A stretch of 64,000 nucleotides of DNA from Clostridia bacterium (GTDB taxonomy: Bacteria; Bacillota; Clostridia; TANB77; CAG-465), in assembly GCA_028686615.1 (NCBI GenBank), contig JAQUBQ010000001.1, positions 142-64,141 on the forward strand, in the 5' to 3' direction. Shown piece after piece: positions 1-12,171 of the stretch. The notes beneath the pieces are model-generated. The model did no database searches. It was not told where the DNA came from and saw only the letters and a program-made list of their open reading frames with translations. The translations under genes were made by a program, and so were the position numbers. Numbering within the stretch: position 1 is the first letter of the stretch; every line of letters starts with the position of its first letter.

Positions 1-123
1 TATTGTATCTATTTTACCATTGGTAATATTAGCAGTATCTAAATAATTAATATAATTTTTATCATAATTTTGGCTAATATTCTTTTTATTAATATCAGTT
101 ATTTCTTTTATTTTTACTATCAT
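1..123 (-). CDS. Partial second hsdS-like gene. It starts with ATG at 123 and runs off the left edge of the window.
   Basis: Reverse-complement translation from 123 gives MIVKIKEITDINKKNISQNYDKNYINYLDTANITNGKIDTI. The (I/V)KxxEI ... Y(I/L)xxxNIxxGKI pattern is typical of an HsdS target-recognition domain N-terminus. It begins 5 nt after the recombinase stop, on the same strand. Confidence 0.45.
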   Translation of the reverse strand, partial: MIVKIKEITDINKKNISQNYDKNYINYLDTANITNGKIDTI

Positions 124-127
124 ATTC

Positions 128-1129
128 TTAACCTATATACTTTCTATGTGATATTTTTACATTATTTTGATTTACCATTGCATAATGCATTGTTGTTTCT
201 ATTTTTACATGTCCTAGCAGTTTTTGGACTTGTTCTATTGGCATTCCTTTATCTATAGCTACTGTTGCTAATGTCCTTCTGAATTTATGAGGGTGTACTC
301 TACTAATATTTGTAGATAGTCCTAATTTTCTTACTATTAATTCAATTCCTGATATTGAAAGTCTTTGATGAGGTTTGTTTTGTGAAACAAATAATGCAAT
401 ATTATTATCGTTTCTTGAATTCAAATATTGTAATAAATGAATTTTTGTTCTTGCATCAAAATAAACTTCTCTTTGCTTATTTCCCTTTCCTAAAACTATA
501 CATGAACGTTCTTCAATATTCAAATCTTTTTTATCTAAATTTACTAACTCTCCTACTCTAATGCCTGTAGAATAAAGCAGTTCTATTACTGCAAGATTTC
601 TAACATTTAAGCACTCATCTCTCATTTTTTCTATATTCTCATCTGTAAAAGTTTCTTTTATTATCGTAGCTGTTTTTATCTTATGAACTCTTCTGACTGG
701 ATTTTTAATAATATAATCTTCTTCTTCCAGCCATGAAAAAAAACTTGAAAATACTCTTCTAATATTATCTACCGTTGTTGAATTACATTTTCCATTATCC
801 TTATATTTTGATAAATAATTTCTTATATCTTCTGTTGTTATTCTCTTTAACGGTTTGTCTATGCTTACTAGCATCTTTTCTATTATTTCTTTATAATACT
901 TTATTGTCCTTTTTGAACAACCTTCTATTTCTTTAGCTGAAATAAAAGCATTTTTATAATTATCATTTATTGTTTTTTCTTCTATTTTTTTTAATTCATC
1001 TGATATAGCAGTAACCTCAACATCTTCAAAATTTCTGATTAAAACATTTTTTAATGCTTCAAGTTGATTATTTGTTAATATTAATGCCATTTCTTGTGTT
1101 ACATTCATTATTACATCATTTTTTACCAT
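128..1129 (-). CDS. Tyrosine site-specific recombinase (XerC/XerD-like phage-integrase family), likely the recombinase of an hsdS shufflon
   Basis: C-terminal catalytic region HPHKFRRTLATVAIDKGMPIEQVQKLLGHVKIETTMHYAMV, with the R...HxxR...Y catalytic signature. It sits between hsdS and a second hsdS-like start. Confidence 0.9.
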   Translation of the reverse strand: MVKNDVIMNVTQEMALILTNNQLEALKNVLIRNFEDVEVTAISDELKKIEEKTINDNYKNAFISAKEIEGCSKRTIKYYKEIIEKMLVSIDKPLKRITTEDIRNYLSKYKDNGKCNSTTVDNIRRVFSSFFSWLEEEDYIIKNPVRRVHKIKTATIIKETFTDENIEKMRDECLNVRNLAVIELLYSTGIRVGELVNLDKKDLNIEERSCIVLGKGNKQREVYFDARTKIHLLQYLNSRNDNNIALFVSQNKPHQRLSISGIELIVRKLGLSTNISRVHPHKFRRTLATVAIDKGMPIEQVQKLLGHVKIETTMHYAMVNQNNVKISHRKYIG

Positions 1130-1194
1130 ATAATATTACTCCTTTCTATGCCAAGTAATATTATATAATATCAAGCAAATAACTATTTGTATGA

Positions 1195-2400
1195 CTAAAT
1201 TTCTATTTTATTTAAGTCTATTTTTCCATTCATTAGTTTTGGTAATAATGTATCCCTTAATTGTGTCAAAGTATTATTCTGCTTATTGTTAATATAAATT
1301 TTTTCAATAATAATTTTCACTTCATTGGTAAAATCAATCATAAATTCACTAGGAGGCAATTTAAATTTGTATTTTTTAAAATCTGCCATTCTAATTCCTT
1401 TTTGTACACTTCCACTTGCTAAACTTACAGAATATTTCTGCATATCAGAACTTAATAATAATAAATACAAAAATTCAGACGATATAAGTTCATTTGGTCT
1501 TATAGTAAATACAGATTCGCTAACATTCCAATTAGTTGGTGTTTCATCTATTAAATACACTCTTCCGATTGTGCCTATACCTGAAAATAGTAAATCTCCT
1601 TTTTGTAAATCAGACCTCTTATTTATTTTAATTATGGCTTCATCATCAACCTTATCGCATTTATCATCTAATATGACTTGATTATTTTGCATATTCTTAA
1701 TTGTTACATAATAATTACTACCTTGCCCTAATACGAAATTTTTTCTTGGATTAAGACCTGTTGCAAATTTAGATGTTGCTTCATCTAATGTTATATCTTT
1801 CCATTTAATTATATCATTATTGTTAAGATATAACTCCTTATAAAGTCTTTTTAATATATTGTACAAATTATCATTTATCTGATTATTAATTTCTATTTTT
1901 TCATCAATATATTTTAAAACATTTACAATTTTATCTTGTTCTTCTTTATCAGGCAAATCAATAATAATATCACTAAACAAAGTTTTACTTAAAATAGGCA
2001 TAGTAGAACCACCTGCAATGCTTTTTAAAAATTCTTTTTTTCCTTTAAAATAATAGTATAAATATTCAGGATTACAAAACAACTTTATATCTGTTATTGA
2101 ATTAATCTGTTGATTGGTTACAGTTTTTCTATCTATTAAATATACTTTACCCATATCAGATCCTATACAACTTACGCAGACACTACCACTTCCCAATATA
2201 ATTGACTTGAAATTATCTGTTACTCTTTTTGTCAAATATCTTTCTGTTTTTCTAATATATTTTTGTTCCTTTTTCATATCTTTTGGAGTTAAAAACATAT
2301 ATATATCTTCAAAGCAAGAAAAGTTTTCACTTCGTTTTGTTGAAGGTGTTTTACCTGTTACAATTCTTCCTATATCACCTAACCTATATTCCATACCCAA
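1195..2400 (-). CDS. hsdS: Type I restriction-modification specificity subunit HsdS, with two target-recognition domains
   Basis: 401 aa. N-terminus reads [13 protein letters not shown], and the TRD2 start reads [20 protein letters not shown]. It overlaps the hsdM stop by 17 nt, which indicates translational coupling. Confidence 0.9.
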
Positions 2401-3907
2401 TTGCTCCTAATACCTTCTTTATTTCTTCATCAAGTTTTCTTGATTCTTCAAATTGTTTCTTTAATTCACTTGTAAGAGTTGTCATTCTTTCTTCAAAAGA
2501 TACTCCATCATCTTCTACTTCTTCTGTTCCTACATATCTACCTGGTGTAAGTAAGCTATTACTTTCTTGTACTTCTTTTTTAGTAGATGATTTACAAAAT
2601 CCTAGTATATCCTCATAGTTTTCATTTTTTCTCCAATTATGATAAGTATCTGCTATTTTTTTAATATCTTCCTCTGATAAATCTCTTACTTTTCTATCTA
2701 CCATATATCCTAAATTTCTTGCATCAATAAATAATATTTTATTTTTTGTTTCTTCTGTTTTTTTCTTCCTCATTATCCATAAGCAACATGGTATTCCAGT
2801 TGCATAGAATAATTGACTAGGCATAGCAACTATACATTCCACTACATCTTTTTCTATCATATTTTTTCTTATCGTTCCTTCATTTGATGTGTCACTAGAA
2901 AGGGAACCATTGGCAAGAACTGTTCCTGCAACTCCTGTTTGCGGGTTTAGATGGTGCAACATGTGTTGTAACCAAGCATAGTTTGCATTTCCTGTAGGTG
3001 GTACTCCGTATTTCCAACGAAGGTCATCTTTTAATCTGTCACCGCCCCAATCTGATATATTAAATGGTGGATTTGCTAATATATAATCTGCTTTAAGAGT
3101 TTTGTGCAAATCATTATGAAATGCATCAGCATTATGCATTCCTAGATTTCCATCTATTCTTCTTATAGCTAAATTCATTTTAGCAAGCTTCCAAGTTGTT
3201 GGGTTTAATTCTTGTCCATATATAGAGACATTTCTAATATTTCCTTGATGTTCCTTTATAAATTTAGTTGATTGTACAAACATTCCTCCAGAACCGCAGC
3301 ATGGATCATATACCCTACCATTATATGGTTCAATCATTTCGACTAATGTTCTAACTATGCACGCCGGAGTATAAAACTCCCCTCCACCTTTTCCTTCAGC
3401 TGAAGCAAATTTGCTTAAGAAGTATTCATATACCCTACCAAGCATGTCCATTTCTTTTGCTTTATCTGTTCCTATTTCTAAATTAGAAAACAGTGTCACT
3501 AGTTCCCCTAGTCTTGTCTTATCAAGTTCAGGTCTTGAATAGTTTTTATTAAGAACTCCTTTTAAAGATGTATTCTCTTTTTCAATAGTCTCCATTGCTA
3601 AGTCAATTATTTTTCCTATTTCTGCTGTATTCGCATGTTTCTTTATTTCGTTCCACCTTGCAATTTTAGGGACCCAAAAAATGTTATCCGATGAATATTC
3701 ATCTTTATCTTCTGGATCTGCTAAATCTTCATTTAAAAGATTATTATATTTTTCTTCAAATGCATCAGATACATACTTTAAAAATATAAGTCCTAAAGCT
3801 ACATGTTTGTATTCTGAAGAATCCATACTTCCTCTTAATTTATCTGCTGCAAGCCATAATTTATCTTCATAACCCAATGTTGTGTTATTATTTATTTTTG
3901 CCATCAT
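2384..3907 (-). CDS. hsdM: Type I restriction-modification DNA methyltransferase subunit HsdM (N6-adenine)
   Basis: 507 aa. Carries the NPPF motif ([13 protein letters not shown]) and an AdoMet-binding region ([12 protein letters not shown]). The N-terminal HsdM_N helix region reads [15 protein letters not shown]. Confidence 0.95.
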
Positions 3908-4233
3908 TATCCTCCTACAATTTTGTATATATTTCTACATATTTATTATACTTTTTTTCTTATTAAAAAGCAAACCATAAACTATAATCTTACTATTCTT
4001 TAACATATTTTGTTAATTAATATATAAAAATGTAAAATATCATCTAAAAAACATATTTATAATATTTAACTAATTTAATAAATAAAGCTGATAATTATTA
4101 AAAAACATAATTAATTACTGCATACTTCTTAAAACAAGCTGTTATAATCGATTTAATTGTTAAAATTCCTTGTCTTGGTGTTACGATACCAAAAGACAAA
4201 ACAAACCCCTCTATACCTTCCTCAGCCTTCACA

Positions 4234-4927
4234 TTGGACCAACAAAAACTCATAATACAATATGTGAATTTATCTAGAGCTACAAATGAAACATTACTTG
4301 CGTTATATACCGGAATGAGAGTTGGTGAAATTATTTCACTATATGTATCAGATATAGACTTTAAAAACAAAACAATAAATGTTAATAAAAACTGTTCCAA
4401 TTATACAGACTTTGATGCAGAGTTCAGAAGTAAAAACAAACAAGAAATATCCAAGACTAAGACTAATTCATCCACTAGGATAATACCATTTATATCTAAT
4501 AAAGTTGAAGAAGTATTAAGAGATCAATTAGAAGTGATTGAATATAATAAAAAAGTTTGGTAAATGTTACAAAAAGAATTCTCAATTACTATTTGCAAAT
4601 GAAAAAGGTAAACTTAAATCTACATCCACTGTTTCAACATGTTTCAATAGACTATGTGAAGTTATAAATGAAATTAAAAACAAAAATATTAAACCTACAA
4701 ATAAAAAATATATTAAAGTATTTAATAAACATAATTTCCATATGATTAGACATACATTTGCTACTAGATGTTTAGAAGCAGGAATGAATATAAAAGTTGT
4801 TTCTAAATTATTAGGTCACTCAAAAATACAATTAACCCTAGATATTTACTCTCATGTACTTGAACAATTTCAAGATGAGGAAATATCTAAGGTTACAGAT
4901 TATTTTAAGGATAAGGAGCTGTTTTAG
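4234..4927 (+). pseudogene. Tyrosine recombinase remnant. It is 5'-truncated and split into two overlapping ORFs by a frameshift.
   Basis: ORF 4234..4563 begins mid-domain at LLALYTGMRVGEIISL (the box I arginine region). ORF 4538..4927 carries HMIRHTFATRCLEAGMNIKVVSKLLGHSKIQLTLDIYSHV. No N-terminal core-binding domain is present. The first ORF opens with a TTG, not a credible start. Confidence 0.7.
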
Positions 4928-4949
4928 AACAGCTCCTTTGTGTATATAT

Positions 4950-7211
4950 TTATAATTTTTTTACATCATCATATATGTTTTTTAACTCTATTATATCCAT
5001 ATCTAAAATTGGTTCATACATAAAAGAATTTAAATGAATATTCTCTGGGGTTACAATATTAACTTTCTCTAGTACTTTAATCTTATCTATCGAACCAATT
5101 TGTATATAACCATTAAAAAGTTCCCTTGTTTGTTTATCACATAAACTTACATGTTGCATTAATAATGTATTATTTCCTGTAACAATACTATTATCTTTAC
5201 TCCAAGAAAATATTTTATTTACATCTTTATTAATTTCTTCAATCATAAACTTTTCTGCTGTCAATCTTGTTGCAATAGCTAAAATAATTTTATTTTCTAA
5301 ATATAAATTAGTAATATTTATGGTGTTAGCTTCAGCAAGTATTTTATCAAAAACTATATCAGTATCTACAACATTTATAAAATTGCTGTTACCAATGTAT
5401 TCATTATATATTATTTTTAGCATTCCAAAAGTCAGCTTATCTGTATGTTCTTTGACATGAAGTAGATTAGTCAAGAACATATAGTCCTCATCTATTAAAG
5501 TATAATTATTTACTCCTTTATCAACTCCATATTCTATTAAATTTCTAACAAAAGGGAGCAAGGCTATTATATATTTTATATTAAGATTTTTTTTCCAAAA
5601 TTGAAACGGTTGTTTTTGATATTTTTCTTTATCCAAACTTATTATGCCGTTAGTTATATTAGCATTTAATCTTTTATCTCTTGGAATAAAAATCCTTGTT
5701 GATATTGTTCTGTAGAAATCGAAATTATGTGATAATATTATTAAATAAAAGTTGTTGTATTTAGACATTTCATATAAATATTCTACTATAGCATATTTAT
5801 TCTTATAATCAAATGAATCAGCAATGTCATCTATAATAAATAATGTTCTCTGATTATCGATTTTTCTTTTTTCAACATCAAAAATTATATTAAGTAAATA
5901 TAAAGCCCTTTTTTCACCTTGACTTAGCACATCCTTGTTTTCTAATTCATCCCTGTCAAATTCAACCCAATTTTCAGGATCTAAATTTTCTTTGTTTCCG
6001 TCCTTACAAAAACTAAAAATAATTTTAGGTAAACTTTCTCCTATTATTGAACTTTTTAAGTTTACTATCTTCATTTTATATGGTACAGTAAATCTTTTTT
6101 CAAATATTTCTAATGCTCTTTTCCAAGGTGTTTCATCAAAATTTATTTCATCTATCTTTTTTTCCAAACTTTCATATTCTTTTTTTAATTCTTCAAATTT
6201 TTTTTCTTCTAACTTAATATATGAAAGCCACAATTGTAATCTTAATTCATTAAGATTATCTATCAAAAGCATCTCTACAATAGATGGGTTGTTCTCTATT
6301 ATATCTTTAAGTACTATTCCTTTTGCATCACTTAATGATTTTTCAATTTCCTTAAGTTCAGGTAAATCTTTTAATAAATCATCAATTTCTTTAAGTTTAT
6401 CAGAGATTTGTTTGATATTTGTTATCTCCATATCCCCAGCCAATATGATTTTATTATCTTTTACAAAATAATTATTTTTTTCTAAGTCTTTTGATATCTC
6501 TTTTAATTTTGGTAATGTAAATCTTCCTTTATCCAAAAAGTTAAAATCATTATACATTTCATCACTTTTTTTGATAAATTCTTTAATGTTTTTTTGAAAT
6601 GTTTCAGATTTAATCTTTTTTAAAACTGCTTCATCAAATATACTTGAATACTTAATGTCTTTTAGATTATCTGCTAACTTTGTTAAATCAAATTTTTTTA
6701 AGTTTAACAAAAAACTGCTATCATCACATTTAAAATCTTTAATTAGCGTGTTCTCCATTTCGTAAACTTTTTTACCTTGTGAAGTTTTTTGAACCTTCAG
6801 TCCTGATTGCTTTTCTAATAACTTAAGAAAATTGTTTCTTAAATTTAAAACACTGTTTATGGATTTTTTCAAGTCACTATTAATCAATAGAGAAGCTATA
6901 TTGTCAGATTCATATGAGTTTTCAAAAGATTTAATTACAAAAATATCATCACAAGATATATTACTATTATCAACTTCTACTTTTAAGATATTTGGAGTTT
7001 TATTAAATATTTCATCTTTAACTTCACTAGATTTACCATCTTGAATCATTTTAAAAGTTTTGGCAAAAGATGTCTTCATGAGACCATTTCTAGCATAAAC
7101 TGCATATACTTTTCCTGTACTAAAATCAAACTCTTTTTCTAATTTATTTATACCATAACAATTTTCAAATTCTAATTTTATATTTTTCATAACTTCCCCC
7201 TTAATATACAT
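4950..7211 (-). CDS. PrrC/RloC-like (AAA_13-type) ABC ATPase with a long coiled-coil insert and an uncharacterised roughly 250-aa C-terminal domain. Candidate anticodon-nuclease or abortive-infection partner of the Type I RM system.
   Basis: N-terminus IKLEFENCYGINKLEKEFDFSTGKVYAVYARNGLMKTSFAKTF parallels the PrrC/RloC N-terminus, but the P-loop is degenerate (NGLMKTS where NGSGKTS is expected). There is a K/E-rich coiled-coil of about 250 aa. The ABC signature is LSQGEKRALYLL and the Walker B is LFIIDDIADSFD. No HEPN Rx4-6H motif was seen in the C-terminal domain. Confidence 0.5.
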   Translation of the reverse strand: MYIKGEVMKNIKLEFENCYGINKLEKEFDFSTGKVYAVYARNGLMKTSFAKTFKMIQDGKSSEVKDEIFNKTPNILKVEVDNSNISCDDIFVIKSFENSYESDNIASLLINSDLKKSINSVLNLRNNFLKLLEKQSGLKVQKTSQGKKVYEMENTLIKDFKCDDSSFLLNLKKFDLTKLADNLKDIKYSSIFDEAVLKKIKSETFQKNIKEFIKKSDEMYNDFNFLDKGRFTLPKLKEISKDLEKNNYFVKDNKIILAGDMEITNIKQISDKLKEIDDLLKDLPELKEIEKSLSDAKGIVLKDIIENNPSIVEMLLIDNLNELRLQLWLSYIKLEEKKFEELKKEYESLEKKIDEINFDETPWKRALEIFEKRFTVPYKMKIVNLKSSIIGESLPKIIFSFCKDGNKENLDPENWVEFDRDELENKDVLSQGEKRALYLLNIIFDVEKRKIDNQRTLFIIDDIADSFDYKNKYAIVEYLYEMSKYNNFYLIILSHNFDFYRTISTRIFIPRDKRLNANITNGIISLDKEKYQKQPFQFWKKNLNIKYIIALLPFVRNLIEYGVDKGVNNYTLIDEDYMFLTNLLHVKEHTDKLTFGMLKIIYNEYIGNSNFINVVDTDIVFDKILAEANTINITNLYLENKIILAIATRLTAEKFMIEEINKDVNKIFSWSKDNSIVTGNNTLLMQHVSLCDKQTRELFNGYIQIGSIDKIKVLEKVNIVTPENIHLNSFMYEPILDMDIIELKNIYDDVKKL

Positions 7212-7445
7212 AAATTATATCACCTTCACCGACAACATTCTTTAGCGAATGCCGTCTAGTTTTGTCGAAATAATAAAATACACCCTATATTTTAATTATA
7301 GAGTGTATTATCTATTCAATTTATCATATAGCAAATCTTGTTGTTACCGGCTGCAGTCAATTTGCAGTCATTGCCTCTTTACTAACCTGCAACCACTGAT
7401 ACATCTAAGCTTGTCAATCTTGTACATACTTTCCTTGTAGTTTTA

Positions 7446-8849
7446 TTATTTTATATTTAATTTTATTCTATTGTATTCCCAGTTTTGAGAAACTTCAGCT
7501 TCTGATAATGCACTGCTGTATAAAGCAAAGTTATATATTGTTCCTGTGTATTTTAATCCTCTACCAAGTCTTAAATCCCCTAATGTTAAGTATTTATATT
7601 GTATTTTTTTACTTCCTGAGTTGAAGGTTTTTACTAAGCTTCCATTTAAATATACTTTTGTATCTTCCCCTCTTCTTCCTACAACTTGTATATTTAAGTA
7701 TTTGTTTTCATATTCTTGAATTGCAATACTTGCAAAGCCCTCTTCTTCGTATTCATAATCTATTTTTAAAAGAGCTCCTCCAGTTTTATAACTATATACA
7801 TGTAAATATCCATATACTATTCCAATCCAATTCAAGTAAACTGCTGATTCTTCAGATAATGCACATAATGTTGCTGGGTAATCTTCCCAACGTTCAGATA
7901 CACCTTTTTGGTTTACAGTTCCTTTAATTGTTAAGTTTATACCATATGTATCTCCTACTGGTTGCATTTCTTGATTCACAGTAATTCTTCCTACTTTTGA
8001 AGCGTTAGAAAGTTGTAATCCTCTATACATGTTATTCTCATAGGTTACATCATTATCCCCTTCCAAACTTTCCAATATTTCGAATTCTCCAAATTGAGTC
8101 AATGTTCTTGGCGAATCAAATGTAACTCCTGTCACTAAGTTATCAAGCACTAATTCAACTTCTTCATCTTGTTCTTGATATTGATTTACAAAATGAATAG
8201 GTACTTCTCCATCCATTATTCCTTGAATGCTCATAACCATACCTGAATTATAATTTACTATATATGGAGCATACTTAGCATTTATTATTCCAATGGATGA
8301 TAAATGATTTTCATCTAAGTAATGCCATCTACTTCCATAAGAAATTCCACGTATTTCTACATTATCAGGATGTGCAGTACCACCAATTTTATCTCCAACT
8401 AATGGTTTTTTTTGTTCTTTAATTTCTAAAACCTTATTTTCAATATTAAGGTTTTCTTTATTAAAGTCATACAGTTCTCTTTTAATAAGGATATATCCTA
8501 ACTTTTCAATATTTTCCTCTTTACTGGTAATATTATCATAGATATATATTAGTTTGTTGCTTAAATAAGCTACATTGTTAAATTCCTTTTCTTGTAGACT
8601 AGGAATTACTTTTTTTATTTCATCCTTTTCAATATATAGTGGATTATCCCTATCATCATTTAACAGCTTTTTAGCTTTGCTATACTCGAATTCTTCCTTA
8701 TATGTAGCAAACTCTGTCATTATTTTCGCTTTACTTGCTTTCCCTATAACTCCACTAGATTGTAAAGTCAAAATAATTGCTCCTGCTAGTATTATCATTA
8801 CTATTATTGTTATTACTAATACTACTAACGATACTCCTTTGTTTTTCAT
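7446..8849 (-). CDS. Type-IV-pilin-like N-terminal segment fused to a LamG/concanavalin-A-like lectin domain protein
   Basis: The likely start is the internal ATG at 8849 (MKNKGVSLVVLVITIIVMIILAGAIILTL), which has an AGAGGT RBS. The track ORF extends to 8879. The C-terminus reads GDLRLGRGLKYTGTIYNFALYSSALSEAEVSQNW, typical of a Laminin_G_3 domain end. Confidence 0.6.
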   Translation of the reverse strand: MKNKGVSLVVLVITIIVMIILAGAIILTLQSSGVIGKASKAKIMTEFATYKEEFEYSKAKKLLNDDRDNPLYIEKDEIKKVIPSLQEKEFNNVAYLSNKLIYIYDNITSKEENIEKLGYILIKRELYDFNKENLNIENKVLEIKEQKKPLVGDKIGGTAHPDNVEIRGISYGSRWHYLDENHLSSIGIINAKYAPYIVNYNSGMVMSIQGIMDGEVPIHFVNQYQEQDEEVELVLDNLVTGVTFDSPRTLTQFGEFEILESLEGDNDVTYENNMYRGLQLSNASKVGRITVNQEMQPVGDTYGINLTIKGTVNQKGVSERWEDYPATLCALSEESAVYLNWIGIVYGYLHVYSYKTGGALLKIDYEYEEEGFASIAIQEYENKYLNIQVVGRRGEDTKVYLNGSLVKTFNSGSKKIQYKYLTLGDLRLGRGLKYTGTIYNFALYSSALSEAEVSQNWEYNRIKLNIK

Positions 8850-8882
8850 TTTTATTACCTCTTTTTTATATGCATACATTTA

Positions 8883-10553
8883 TTATCTACTAAAGCTTCC
8901 ATCTCCTATAAATTCTCTAAGTAATGAATTAATAGGTATTTCTTTTGTTTCAACTGGTAAGAAGTTGCTTAAAAACTCATAAAGTCTTCTTGCTTCAGAG
9001 AAATATTTACTTGTATTTTTAACTTGTAATAATAATGGTTCTGCAAATGTTCTTATAACTCCCATCTCATATATTAAACTACTATTAAATATGTAATCTG
9101 CACTATCTGTAAATGGATATATATTTTTCTCTTCTCCTTTACGTATTTTTTCCCACATTTCTAATGTTTCTTCAACTTTTACACTCCTTGTTGCATAATC
9201 TCTTACTATTCTTCTAAGCATTCTAGTATCAGTAGATGAAACCTTTGTATATGAATCCAAATTTAATGTTGTAATCGGTGCCATATATATTTTAAATTTG
9301 TATTTTGCTTCTACTTGTTTTGTCATTTCATCATTTAAAGCATGAATTCCTTCAACAAGCATTATATCTTTTTTCTCTAATTTTAATTTTTTATCAGAAT
9401 ATGATTTTGAACCTTTACCAAAATCATATCTTGGAATGTTTACAGACTCTCCACTTGTAAGTTTTTTCATATGATCATTAAACAATTCTATATCTAATGA
9501 ATTCACTGACTCATAATCATATTCCCCTGTCTCTTTATTGTAATTTTCTTTTCTTTCCCTATAGTAATTATCCATTGATATTATAATTGGATTGTATCCT
9601 ATTAGTTTTAAATTATCCCCTAGTTTTTGAGCAAAGGTTGTTTTACCTGAAGAAGATGGTCCTGCAATTAGTAGCATCTTTATTTCTTCTTTTTCTTCTA
9701 TTTTTTGTGTAAGCTTTAGTATTTGTTTTTCATGCAATATTTCACTTGTACGTATAATTGTTCCTATATCTTTATTTATAACTTTATCATTTAGCTGTCT
9801 TACAGATTCAACATTTATTTTTGTATTATATTCTTCAAATTCTTCATAAATATCATATAATTTATTTTTAGTAATTTCTTTTGGCATTACATTTATATTA
9901 TCCCTGTTTGGTGCTACAAGTACAAAACCTTTTCTATATGGTTTGATATCGAATCCTTTTATAAATCCTGTCCTTGGTGCTAGAACCCCACTCATATGAT
10001 TTGCAACTGTTTCACAGAAGAATAACGTTACGTATGATTTAAGCTCACTACCCATCATATTTATATAATCTTTGTTTTGCATAGTTTCGTATATAATTTT
10101 TGCTTCCTCAGATGGAACAGCTCTTCTTACAATTTGGCTATTTCTATCAATTATATTTTGCATTTCTTCTCTAATATTATTTGCCATCTCTTCTGTAAAT
10201 GCTTCTTTACATATAAAATAGCTATCATTATTCATATTATTACTGTACTCAACTTTGTATTTAGGATATAGCTTACAAAGAGCCATATATAATATGAATC
10301 TTAGTGTTCTATTATATATCCTGTATCCATCATTACTGTTATATGTTACATGTTCAAGCTTAGTATCAGTTACAATTTCATAATCTAGTGTTCTTACTTC
10401 ATTATTCACTCTTACTGCCATAATTTCTGATATTTTACTAGGGTATTCTGCTTGTTCTATAATTTCGTCTACCTTCGTTTTATAATTTACTACAAGTTCC
10501 CTAGAACCTTCTAATGTCACTTTTATTTTTTTTGCATATAGTTTGTCTAACAT
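8883..10553 (-). CDS. Uridine-kinase/phosphoribulokinase-family P-loop kinase fused to an N-terminal ThrRS/AlaRS-like TGS/SAD domain (putative nucleoside kinase)
   Basis: Walker A LLIAGPSSSGKTTFAQKLGD followed by ISMDNYYRE is uridine-kinase-like. The N-terminal roughly 280 aa begin with a TGS-like segment (KIKVTLEGSRELVV). Confidence 0.55.
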   Translation of the reverse strand: MLDKLYAKKIKVTLEGSRELVVNYKTKVDEIIEQAEYPSKISEIMAVRVNNEVRTLDYEIVTDTKLEHVTYNSNDGYRIYNRTLRFILYMALCKLYPKYKVEYSNNMNNDSYFICKEAFTEEMANNIREEMQNIIDRNSQIVRRAVPSEEAKIIYETMQNKDYINMMGSELKSYVTLFFCETVANHMSGVLAPRTGFIKGFDIKPYRKGFVLVAPNRDNINVMPKEITKNKLYDIYEEFEEYNTKINVESVRQLNDKVINKDIGTIIRTSEILHEKQILKLTQKIEEKEEIKMLLIAGPSSSGKTTFAQKLGDNLKLIGYNPIIISMDNYYRERKENYNKETGEYDYESVNSLDIELFNDHMKKLTSGESVNIPRYDFGKGSKSYSDKKLKLEKKDIMLVEGIHALNDEMTKQVEAKYKFKIYMAPITTLNLDSYTKVSSTDTRMLRRIVRDYATRSVKVEETLEMWEKIRKGEEKNIYPFTDSADYIFNSSLIYEMGVIRTFAEPLLLQVKNTSKYFSEARRLYEFLSNFLPVETKEIPINSLLREFIGDGSFSR

Positions 10554-10738
10554 CTCTAACCTCCAACGTTTCCTCTTATTTAGTTTCCATTAATAATTCT
10601 ACATTCATGATATATTATATTCTGTAAATTGTCAATTTACTATCTTTAATAAAAAATTGTTTTTAACTCGTATTTTTAAGTAATAAAAAAGGGTATTCGA
10701 GTTTTTCTAAACTAGCAAGATTCCCCTTTTCTTTATTT

Positions 10739-11941
10739 TTACTTTATATAAGCTACAATTCGAAGTCCCTTATTATCACCCGCAACATAAGGAAGACTGT
10801 AAAGTGAGCGAGAACTTACAGGAGCGATTGAACCTCTAGAAGCATAAGCTCCGCCAAAACCGACACGTCCATTCCAACTGTAAGCCTCCATAGTCCATTC
10901 ATACACATTTCCTGCCAAATCATATATGTTTTTCTTTTGATAAGTGGCTTCTGAACCTGTTACTTTAAGTCCACCTCCACCAAGATAGTTCCCATACTCA
11001 GAACTATCTTTTACATTTATTCCACTAGCTTTATACCATCTCATTACTGCATCCCATTGCACTCCATAAATCAAATGACTTACTACTCCTCTTGTGTTTT
11101 GACTATTATCTGGATATAAGCTTCTTGCTACCTTTACTGCTCCATTTGCATTATCATCTCCTGCAAACCAATCATATGCTGTATCATCTTGTGTCCCACC
11201 CCATGGAATATAGTTCCACACAGCTATCCCTTGTCTTATTCGTGGTTTCTTTGTTCCATCTGCATCATTTATTGTTGTTTCTGTTGGTGCCTGCATCCCT
11301 TCAGCTATTCCTGCTTCATATCTTCCTATATAAAATCCTTTATACTTCTCTACACTTGCATACATCTTTTCTACTTCTCTATCTTTTCCTGTTTCAGGAG
11401 TTATTTCGTATAAATCATTTTTCGGAGCTTGATCATTCCTAAAATCATATCTTATAAATTCATTAATATTTTCTACTGGTACCCATACAAATTGATTTCC
11501 TTTCAAGCCTTCTGCTATATTATGTGATGTTCCTTGTCCCTCATCCTCGATATTATCCGATATTATTAAACCTTCTTCTACTGTTCCCCCTACATGGTAA
11601 AAGCCTTCTGGAATTATTGATTTAATATCATATACTGTCCCTTTTTCTGTTACGTTATATTCACTTTTTTTAAATCCCGCTTCACTTAATCTGTTTTCAA
11701 TATATTTTATTAAAGTTATTTCTTCTTTTTCAGCATCTGACATAAGTTCATACTCTGCTCTTGCAAGTACAGCTACTTGTTTGGCGTTTGCCTTATCGCT
11801 TTTCATTTTTGCTTCTTCTGCCCTAGCTATAATTCCACTACTATTTAATGATAATATTATTGCCCCTGCTAAGATTATCATTACTATTATTGTAATGACA
11901 AGTACTATTAATGATATTCCTTTTCTTTTATTTGTTTTCAT
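10739..11941 (-). CDS. Pilin-like N-terminal segment fused to an FGE-sulfatase (SUMF1) fold domain protein, paralog 1
   Basis: N-terminus MKTNKRKGISLIVLVITIIVMIILAGAIILSL with a GGAGGG RBS. FGE-fold motifs FYIGRYEAG, IYDLAGNVYEWT, RGS and a terminal GLRIVAYIK are present. The catalytic Cys pair is absent. Confidence 0.7.
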   Translation of the reverse strand: MKTNKRKGISLIVLVITIIVMIILAGAIILSLNSSGIIARAEEAKMKSDKANAKQVAVLARAEYELMSDAEKEEITLIKYIENRLSEAGFKKSEYNVTEKGTVYDIKSIIPEGFYHVGGTVEEGLIISDNIEDEGQGTSHNIAEGLKGNQFVWVPVENINEFIRYDFRNDQAPKNDLYEITPETGKDREVEKMYASVEKYKGFYIGRYEAGIAEGMQAPTETTINDADGTKKPRIRQGIAVWNYIPWGGTQDDTAYDWFAGDDNANGAVKVARSLYPDNSQNTRGVVSHLIYGVQWDAVMRWYKASGINVKDSSEYGNYLGGGGLKVTGSEATYQKKNIYDLAGNVYEWTMEAYSWNGRVGFGGAYASRGSIAPVSSRSLYSLPYVAGDNKGLRIVAYIK

Positions 11942-12171
11942 ATGTTTTTCCCTCCTATAATTATCTTTAATATTATTATATATTATTATTGTTTTAAAAA
12001 ACTTACTATTGCCTATTTACATCTATTTGTAATACAAATTAAATACTAATAATACATAATTGTAATATAGGCATTATGCTTTTTATATGTTTTTTTATAA
12101 CCTTGACTTGGTCTTTACTTTTTCAAGTTTTTTATGTATAATGAACTCTGCTTTAAAGGAGTGAATATTTT

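Follow-up and report, generated by a model that had tools for sequence, protein, structure and literature searches.

The left end of a 64,000-nucleotide (nt) stretch of contig JAQUBQ010000001.1 from a Clostridia bacterium (assembly GCA_028686615.1, positions 142 to 64,141; the whole stretch is referred to here as the window) carries part of a locus for Type I restriction-modification in which a tyrosine recombinase gene lies between two genes for the specificity subunit, hsdS, with its target recognition domains (TRDs). The window genes were called from the open reading frame (ORF) listing and Pfam scans, which agree on the minus-strand order hsdM, hsdS, tyrosine recombinase, second hsdS given in the original prediction:

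2384..3907, minus strand: hsdM, the Type I methyltransferase subunit (506-507 aa), with PF12161 HsdM_N and PF02384 N6_Mtase (E 1.9e-110).
1195..2400, minus strand: hsdS1, a complete specificity gene (401 aa), with two stretches matching PF01420 (E 1.9e-37).
128..1129, minus strand: tyrosine recombinase (333 aa), with PF13495 and PF00589 (E 2e-36).
123..1, minus strand: start of hsdS', the first 41 codons (TRD1b), translated as MIVKIKEITDINKK..., in a frame that exits the window.

Against TIGR00497, HsdM scores 199 bits, which is under the model cut-off of 242.75. The 5' part of hsdS1 overlaps the end of hsdM, and the gene consists, in order, of TRD1a, the central conserved region, TRD2a and the C-terminal conserved region. 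The gap between hsdS1 and the recombinase gene is 65 nt long and contains no gene, and the recombinase stop codon is separated from the hsdS' ATG (at position 123) by a 4-nt spacer (TAA-GAAT-ATG), one nucleotide less than first counted. A promoter and terminator scan detected no terminator between the genes of the locus, the hsdS1-recombinase gap included, and was uninformative with regard to promoters in this AT-rich DNA (39 promoter-like sites vs 31 expected). The 41-aa hsdS' stub taken by itself matched no model in the Pfam scan, and neither the ORF listing nor the Pfam scan revealed hsdR in window positions 3908-12000, in agreement with the earlier statement that none lies within 7 kb upstream.

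The window recombinase protein is encoded on a single public contig, denoted L001 (NCBI GCA_028704485.1, JAQWFI010000010.1), the first 7904 nt of which are the exact reverse complement of window positions 1-7904 (zero mismatches, 100% identity), and this contig accordingly serves as the leftward extension of the window (window position = 7905 minus L001 position). Beyond the window edge, L001 encodes the following genes, all on the same strand as hsdM:

to L001 8315: hsdS' (177 aa), with TRD1b and most of the central conserved region, ending in ..NDNLYNVA and a stop codon.
L001 8336-8941: hsdS'' (201 aa), with TRD2b and the C-terminal conserved region, passing PF01420.
L001 8943-9140: orf65, a CxxC..CxxC mini-protein (65 aa).
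L001 9197-9607: orf136.
L001 9627-12644: hsdR (1005 aa), with TIGR00348 (622 bits, E 9.6e-187), PF04313 and PF04851.

The second hsdS thus leaves the window as a 41-aa frame and continues as a 177-aa ORF which passes PF01420 (59 bits vs a cut-off of 22), so that the window stub is a genuine hsdS. This ORF and hsdS'' are separated by a 20-nt gap and together form the split second specificity gene, hsdS2. The hsdR gene begins approximately 1.8 kb beyond the left edge of the window and is read in the direction of the operon, which gives the order hsdM, hsdS1, recombinase, split hsdS2, orf65, orf136 and hsdR on one strand. As a Type I restriction-modification operon, the locus is complete, and it is divided by the edge of the window. 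The original prediction had suggested that the system may be a phase-variable methylome controller (phasevarion) devoid of hsdR, with the caveat that hsdR might lie to the left of the window; given that hsdR is present in the operon, on a contig with 100% identity to the window along 7904 nt, it is the caveat that applies and the methylase-only reading fails. The products of orf65 and orf136 belong to no family in Pfam, NCBIfam or PADLOC, and have no counterpart in any of the fetched loci.

A core scan of the locus identified five same-direction copies of a 14-bp dyad core, YAAAT-N4-ATTTR, three of which (m1, m2, m3) are located at hsdS midpoints and two (t1, t2) at tail positions (the last entry is a further direct repeat):

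1863..1898, minus strand: m1, 36 nt long, within hsdS1's central conserved region, with the core TAAATGATAATTTG at window 1864-1877, encoding ..QINDNL...
L001 8287-8300: m2 core.
L001 8325-8338: m3 core.
1176..1202, minus strand: t1 tail site, AAATTTAGTCATACAAATAGTTATTTG, covering the stop codon of hsdS1 plus 19 nt beyond it; dyad core, CAAATAGTTATTTG, at 1176-1189.
L001 9139-9164: t2 tail site, off the window, directly after the orf65 stop (direct repeat family D7).
1198..1317, minus strand: C-terminal conserved region of hsdS1, a 120-nt direct repeat (family D1) with 71% identity to the end of the downstream hsdS (L001 6588-6707 vs 8807-8926).

The midpoint cores, TAAAT-GATA-ATTTG, fall on the QINxxL codons within the central conserved region, whereas the tail cores read CAAAT-AGTT-ATTTG or ATTTA; the arms (YAAAT...ATTTR) are alike in the two classes and the 4-nt centers differ. 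The m1 stretch is part of a 36-nt exact direct repeat shared by hsdS1 and the second hsdS (L001 6007-6042 = 8266-8301), and a third, 19-nt copy of the midpoint repeat is found at L001 8321-8339. The 26-nt tail element AAATTTAGTCATACAAATAGTTATTT extends across the hsdS1 stop and recurs just past the orf65 stop, and the tail core is placed 5 nt after a stop codon in both cases, that of hsdS1 for t1 and that of orf65 for t2. The exact motif CAAAT-N4-ATTTG occurs once in the 64-kb window, at t1. Given that orf65 follows the C-terminal conserved region of hsdS'' and precedes the tail core of t2, it would ride along with the TRD2b cassette.

Within hsdS2, the cores m2 and m3 bracket a 19-nt linker that contains stop codons; it is this linker, sitting between two midpoint cores, that splits hsdS2 and leaves hsdS1 as the only intact specificity gene in the present state of the locus. 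The four TRDs of the two genes are mutually dissimilar. All hsdS pieces, the recombinase gene, hsdM and hsdR are co-directional, and the five cores have a single polarity. In window 1-8000 and L001 3900-9700, no inverted repeats joining the hsdS copies were found beyond AT-rich chance matches (70-87% complementary). Because all the pieces face the same way, inversion cannot exchange the TRDs. Thus, of the features that were expected to accompany a shufflon, further hsdS fragments are indeed present to the left of the window and inverted repeats are not.

A separate observation concerns the possible origin of the linker. In the streptococcal loci L033, L037 and L038, truncated hsdS ends of the form ..HHLVA-stop are found near 6276-6300 and 8491-8540, and they arise because what follows the midpoint core there is a tail junction (stop + GCCAC + core) in reverse complement. 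In the window locus, the linker's left part (GTAGCTTAA) resembles this reverse-complemented junction, and the linker may be a remnant of an inverted cassette boundary.

The recombinase has a complete catalytic set (R191, K215, H281, R284, H307 and Y316), invariant in alignment A1, and passes the NCBIfam model NF040815 (245 bits vs a cut-off of 220). Its relatives number in the thousands, and the related loci are hosted by Clostridia, Lachnospiraceae, Bacteroidota, Fusobacterium, Streptococcus and Methanobrevibacter. Of the 58 informative loci from species representatives, 28 are entirely co-directional, and the other 30 include an inverted hsdS piece. A single identical recombinase that is 74% related to that of the window, P0042, is encoded in 10 places, and all of them show the order hsdM, hsdS, recombinase, hsdS, hsdR in one direction. 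These loci and the species representatives L013-L017 and L020 (recombinases 63-74% identical) contain five cores each, retain the tail element 5 nt past the hsdS stop, and possess a homologous linker, GTnGCTTAA ... AGAT followed by the core. In L020, the arms co-vary to TAAAT..ATTTA in the midpoint and tail classes alike. The conservation of the linker among relatives indicates that the split of hsdS2 is a conserved design rather than a random pseudogene. In the nearest relative, L093 (recombinase 94% identical), the downstream hsdS is intact; this contig opens approximately 16 nt ahead of the core of the tail site, and its other end falls within the C-terminal conserved region, a part of the tail repeat.

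Recombinases 57-60% identical to that of the window are also encoded in four contigs of the archaeon Methanobrevibacter. The neighbors are hsdS, hsdM and hsdR in L064 and L087 and hsdS only in L067, and in L034 the recombinase gene stands alone. This distribution suggests that the recombinase module has spread across domains.

Evidence of rearrangement comes from the related loci with recombinases 73-74% identical to that of the window, in which modules that are 99.6-100% identical at the DNA level occur in all four predicted arrangements across metagenome samples. In the comparison of L009 with L010, the flanks are 100% and 99.86% identical and the TRD2 modules, of 680-725 bp, are reciprocally swapped; the intact copy is the upstream hsdS in L010 and the downstream hsdS in L009, the respective other copy being split. 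The left crossover interval of this pair is 16 nt long, that is, the core itself, and the right one spans about 118 nt with the tail core included. In another pair, L004 and L007, which comes from one sample, TRD2 has been swapped without the linker. Ten contigs (L095-L104) encode P0107, a recombinase with 73% identity to that of the window, and in these the modules A, Y, C, the linker L and X are 100% identical at the nucleotide level in the following arrangements:

A-Y/rec/C/L/X
A/L/X/rec
L/Y/rec
rec/C-Y
rec/C-X
rec/C/L/Y

Every junction of the four predicted states is present among these contigs. The rule of one complete hsdS per state, scored on the cleanly assembled complete loci (the error-prone long-read loci L003, L005, L006 and L008 being left out), holds for the window locus, with its intact hsdS1 and split hsdS2, as well as for L004, L007, L009-L011 and L095.

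The short-read contigs with the P0107 recombinase gene are mostly 2-2.4 kb long. Five of the ten (L097-L100 and L103) end less than about 40 nt from a core, and four (L096, L101, L102 and L104) start at the tail repeat. The core is shorter than any assembler k-mer, and the clustering of contig ends at cores and tail repeats points to real branching in the reads. One of these contigs, L099 (ERZ14231469 NODE_16179), was assembled by SPAdes and is 2296 nt long; its ends overlap by 55 nt, and it describes a circular path through the linker, X (TRD2), the tail site, the recombinase and C (TRD1). In its sequence, this path matches the circle that would be expected from recombination between two midpoint sites. 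The same sample, in any case, contains two co-existing states of the locus. In L097 (ERZ14864037 NODE_16256), the TRD2 module Y is present, with 100% identity, on both sides of the recombinase gene (58-608 and 2344-2894); this duplicate may reflect either a non-reciprocal product or the way the assembler went through the repeat.

Taken together, these observations lead us to propose that the locus probably shuffles the TRDs of its hsdS genes by excision and reintegration, following the logic of the tvr locus of Streptococcus pneumoniae and employing a recombinase and a core related to those of the SsuCC20p system of Streptococcus suis (see below). This much of the shufflon originally predicted stands, in that the locus is one of specificity shuffling and its close relatives exchange TRD modules between hsdS positions; the inversion of modules does not, the pieces being co-directional and the repeats direct. 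If the locus is written as A m1 B t1 R C m2 L m3 D t2, where R is the recombinase and L the linker, its present state in the window is A-B intact and C/L/D split. Under the proposed mechanism, the recombinase would pair two midpoint sites and so release a circle carrying TRD2 and the tail site along with the recombinase gene and the second gene's TRD1. This circle would then re-enter at another site of matching class, which could be a tail site or the remaining midpoint site. The net outcome would be that two TRD2 cassettes change places, with or without the stop-linker. Thus, recombination of m1 with m3 would excise [B t1 R C m L m], and reintegration at t2 would yield A-D + C/L/B, the change that separates L004 from L007. 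Recombination of m1 with m2 would excise [B t1 R C m], reintegration of which at t2 would yield A/L/D + C-B, the change from L010 to L009, and at m3 would yield A/L/B + C-D. The distinct 4-nt centers would presumably block recombination between the two classes of sites and hold the cassettes in register. There would be four states with one intact hsdS each (A-B, A-D, C-B and C-D) and, hence, four methylation and restriction specificities. Protein products of the split copies and expression of a downstream intact copy would be expected by analogy with SsuCC20p.

Several points weigh against this proposal. The main weakness is that switching is documented in relatives only, and it is from these that we infer switching in the window strain itself; likewise, the recombinase is the presumed catalyst of the exchange and the circle a presumed intermediate. 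The locus of the window strain is on record in a single arrangement: exact-protein look-ups with hsdM and hsdS1 returned only the same contig, and metagenome scans with sequences of its own lineage (the start of TRD2b, and the tail site with the recombinase leader) gave 0 hits. The right arm of t2 is one base off (ATTTA vs ATTTG) and this site is set apart from hsdS'' by orf65, so that the mismatched and displaced copy may function less well. Co-existing strains or RecA-dependent exchange could in principle account for the metagenomic variants, and L099 could be an assembly-graph cycle produced from mixed states rather than a real circle. Finally, the tie to TvrR, the recombinase of tvr, is one of locus logic and of indirect phyletic resemblance to clade 2 of Huang et al. 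(2020).

The single recorded arrangement and the state of the second tail site are also what could be expected of a static locus, with a recombinase that is inactive or serves another purpose, an hsdS2 that has decayed to a pseudogene, split by a stop mutation, and a specificity fixed as TRD1a + TRD2a. Such a locus appears unlikely, considering that the stop-linker is homologous and core-flanked in loci with recombinases 63-74% identical to that of the window and that, in these relatives, it moves between the upstream and the downstream hsdS. Furthermore, the recombinase is full length with all its catalytic residues, and the four TRDs are intact open frames that pass PF01420.

Slightly less probable still is the exchange of TRDs by general homologous recombination or gene conversion at the conserved regions of the hsdS genes, within or between strains, with the recombinase not acting as the catalyst. 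The crossover intervals on the tail side, at 118-143 nt, would suffice for RecA, the long repeats of tvr recombine, if inefficiently, without TvrR, and the presence of the same TRD2 at both positions of L097 looks non-reciprocal. However, the crossover intervals on the left are only 14-16 nt long and coincide with the dyad core, the exchanges are reciprocal inside near-identical flanks, switching of SsuCC20p at its 14-bp repeats requires a homologous recombinase, and the position of the recombinase gene between the hsdS genes is kept across phyla.

The possibility that the recombinase, hsdS', hsdS'' and orf65 comprise a self-contained integrative cassette that entered hsdS1 at its 3' end, the 26-nt repeats serving as attL and attR, and that moves as a whole instead of shuffling TRDs seems remote. 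The 26-nt direct repeats do flank a 2436-bp segment that begins with the recombinase gene, and orf65 is unique to the window locus; however, all relatives, which lack orf65, carry the tail element after both hsdS genes, and excision between the two tail sites is one of the reactions within the shuffling model. An independent mobile cassette was therefore dropped from consideration, the relatives varying by internal swaps of TRD2 and linker and not by the presence or absence of the whole segment. Least probable of all is a classical inverting hsdS shufflon (epigenetic inverton), in which inversion brings TRDs into an expressed gene: recombinases of the same family accompany an inverted hsdS piece in 30 of the 58 informative species, including the SsuCC20p locus of S. 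suis, but the geometry described above, with all hsdS pieces on one strand, only AT-rich chance matches (70-87%) in place of a linking inverted repeat, and five cores of shared polarity, already contradicts it.

The genes surrounding the operon in window 3908-12000 encode a frameshifted integrase, an ATPase of the PDC-S46 family, two pilin-like proteins and a uridine-kinase-like protein. The 753-aa ATPase (window 4950-7211, minus strand) has a weak SMC_N match in Pfam and a full-length match to the PADLOC candidate defense family PDC-S46 (E 2.5e-203), and with this gene just upstream of hsdM the neighborhood looks like a defense island. At window 4234-4927 (plus strand), two overlapping ORFs (109 and 129 aa) match the catalytic domain PF00589, each of them covering a part of it; they represent a frameshifted, N-terminally truncated second integrase gene that faces hsdM and is possibly a remnant of the island boundary. 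The proteins encoded at window 7446-8879 and 10739-11941 (both minus strand) have near-identical prepilin-like N-termini, KG[V/I]SL[V/I]VLVITIIVMIILAGAIIL, and one of them has a LamG-like C-terminus. On the other side of the operon, downstream of hsdR (L001 13300-14749), PADLOC's candidate two-gene system PDC-M59A/B is matched by the products of two genes, one of 340 aa (E 3.9e-102) and one of 144 aa with a Fic domain (E 1.7e-36). Across the 64-kb window, no Rfam family reached its gathering score (no tRNA, rRNA or riboswitch).

Among the characterized phase-variable Type I systems, the tvr (SpnIV) locus of S. pneumoniae offers a close parallel in logic. This locus is co-directional, and its four TRD sequences are shuffled by TvrR-dependent excision of a circle and its reintegration, at direct repeats of about 18 bp (midpoint) and about 70 bp (tail-end) with a common core of about 11 bp; the TRD that adjoins hsdM stays fixed, and without TvrR the long repeats recombine inefficiently (Kwun et al., 2018; PMC6265443). 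The window locus shares with tvr the co-directional order of hsdM, TRDs, recombinase, TRDs and hsdR, the combination of short midpoint and longer tail-end direct repeats with a common core and, as predicted features, four arrangements of four TRDs, an immobile hsdM-proximal TRD and a circle that carries the recombinase gene. It differs in that neither a tvrA/tvrT (Phd/Doc) pair nor an attenuator accompanies the recombinase gene, which follows hsdS1 by 65 nt and is itself followed by hsdS' 4 nt past its end. Moreover, unlike the 3+1 and 2+2 layouts of tvr, here a conserved linker between midpoint sites sets which hsdS is intact.

The SsuCC20p system of S. suis provides a parallel in sequence. 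Switching in this system involves the 14-bp repeats TAAATCATCATTTA and TAAATGATGATTTA and requires the recombinase of the locus, exactly one hsdS is always complete and the downstream hsdS is expressed, the mechanism having been left open by the authors (Roodsant et al., 2023; PMC10790761). The window recombinase, a homologue of the SsuCC20p XerD, is 58% identical, over its full length, to that of the S. suis locus L033, where the published repeats occupy the midpoint and, in inverted orientation, the tail positions. The window core TAAATGATAATTTG matches the published TAAATGATGATTTA in 12 of 14 positions and the homologous coding-strand repeat TAAATCATCATTTA in 11 of 14. In both systems, the core is located in homologous QINxxL codons, the tail core lies 5 nt past the stop, there are four TRDs with one complete hsdS per state, and it is the second-position TRDs that change places, as a prediction in the case of the window locus. 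However, SsuCC20p has four sites, with one TRD cassette inverted and the tail sites being inverted copies of the midpoint ones, whereas in the window locus all elements are direct, the centers of the tail and midpoint cores differ, and there are five sites and a linker.

Inverting hsdS loci have been described as "epigenetic invertons" (SpnD39III/ivr of S. pneumoniae with CreX/PsrA, and those of B. fragilis and M. pulmonis) in a survey that also recognized a broad "clade 2 (TvrR)", left its "peculiar" hsdS layouts uncharacterized and mentioned one direct-repeat locus (Huang et al., 2020; PMC7672463). The window locus resembles the invertons in the presence of several hsdS copies along with a locus-encoded tyrosine recombinase and in the outcome, the switching of Type I specificity; unlike them, it has neither the inverted repeats nor the opposite-facing silent copies that invertons require. 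The spread of clade 2 (Firmicutes, Bacteroidetes, Fusobacteria, Euryarchaeota and others) resembles that of the window recombinase family. Searches for phase-variable Type I systems mostly target inverted repeats, so that co-directional loci are missed or set aside as "peculiar".

What the present analysis contributes is a defined anatomy (five direct 14-bp cores and a stop-linker), a four-state model and metagenomic evidence of the four states in relatives. Given that the operon encodes a full restriction system, switching would alter both the defense against phages and plasmids and the methylome within a clone. A broader generalization, to which we would assign even chances, is that the stop-linker is a mobile gene-breaking cassette in an all-direct, five-site locus which, moved with TRD2 or apart from it by excision and reintegration, keeps exactly one of two tandem hsdS genes intact and provides four specificities without inversion. 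Phase-variable Type I systems would then have a further branch, distinct and widespread, that is seen in the Clostridia of gut and rumen and, with other layouts, reaches Methanobrevibacter. This design would also supply the mechanism for SsuCC20p ("TRDs switching place"), which the anatomy described here renders directly testable. The co-directional five-site layout with a conserved movable stop-linker is not described among the published systems with which the window locus was compared, and combines the direct-repeat logic of tvr with a recombinase and core related to those of SsuCC20p.

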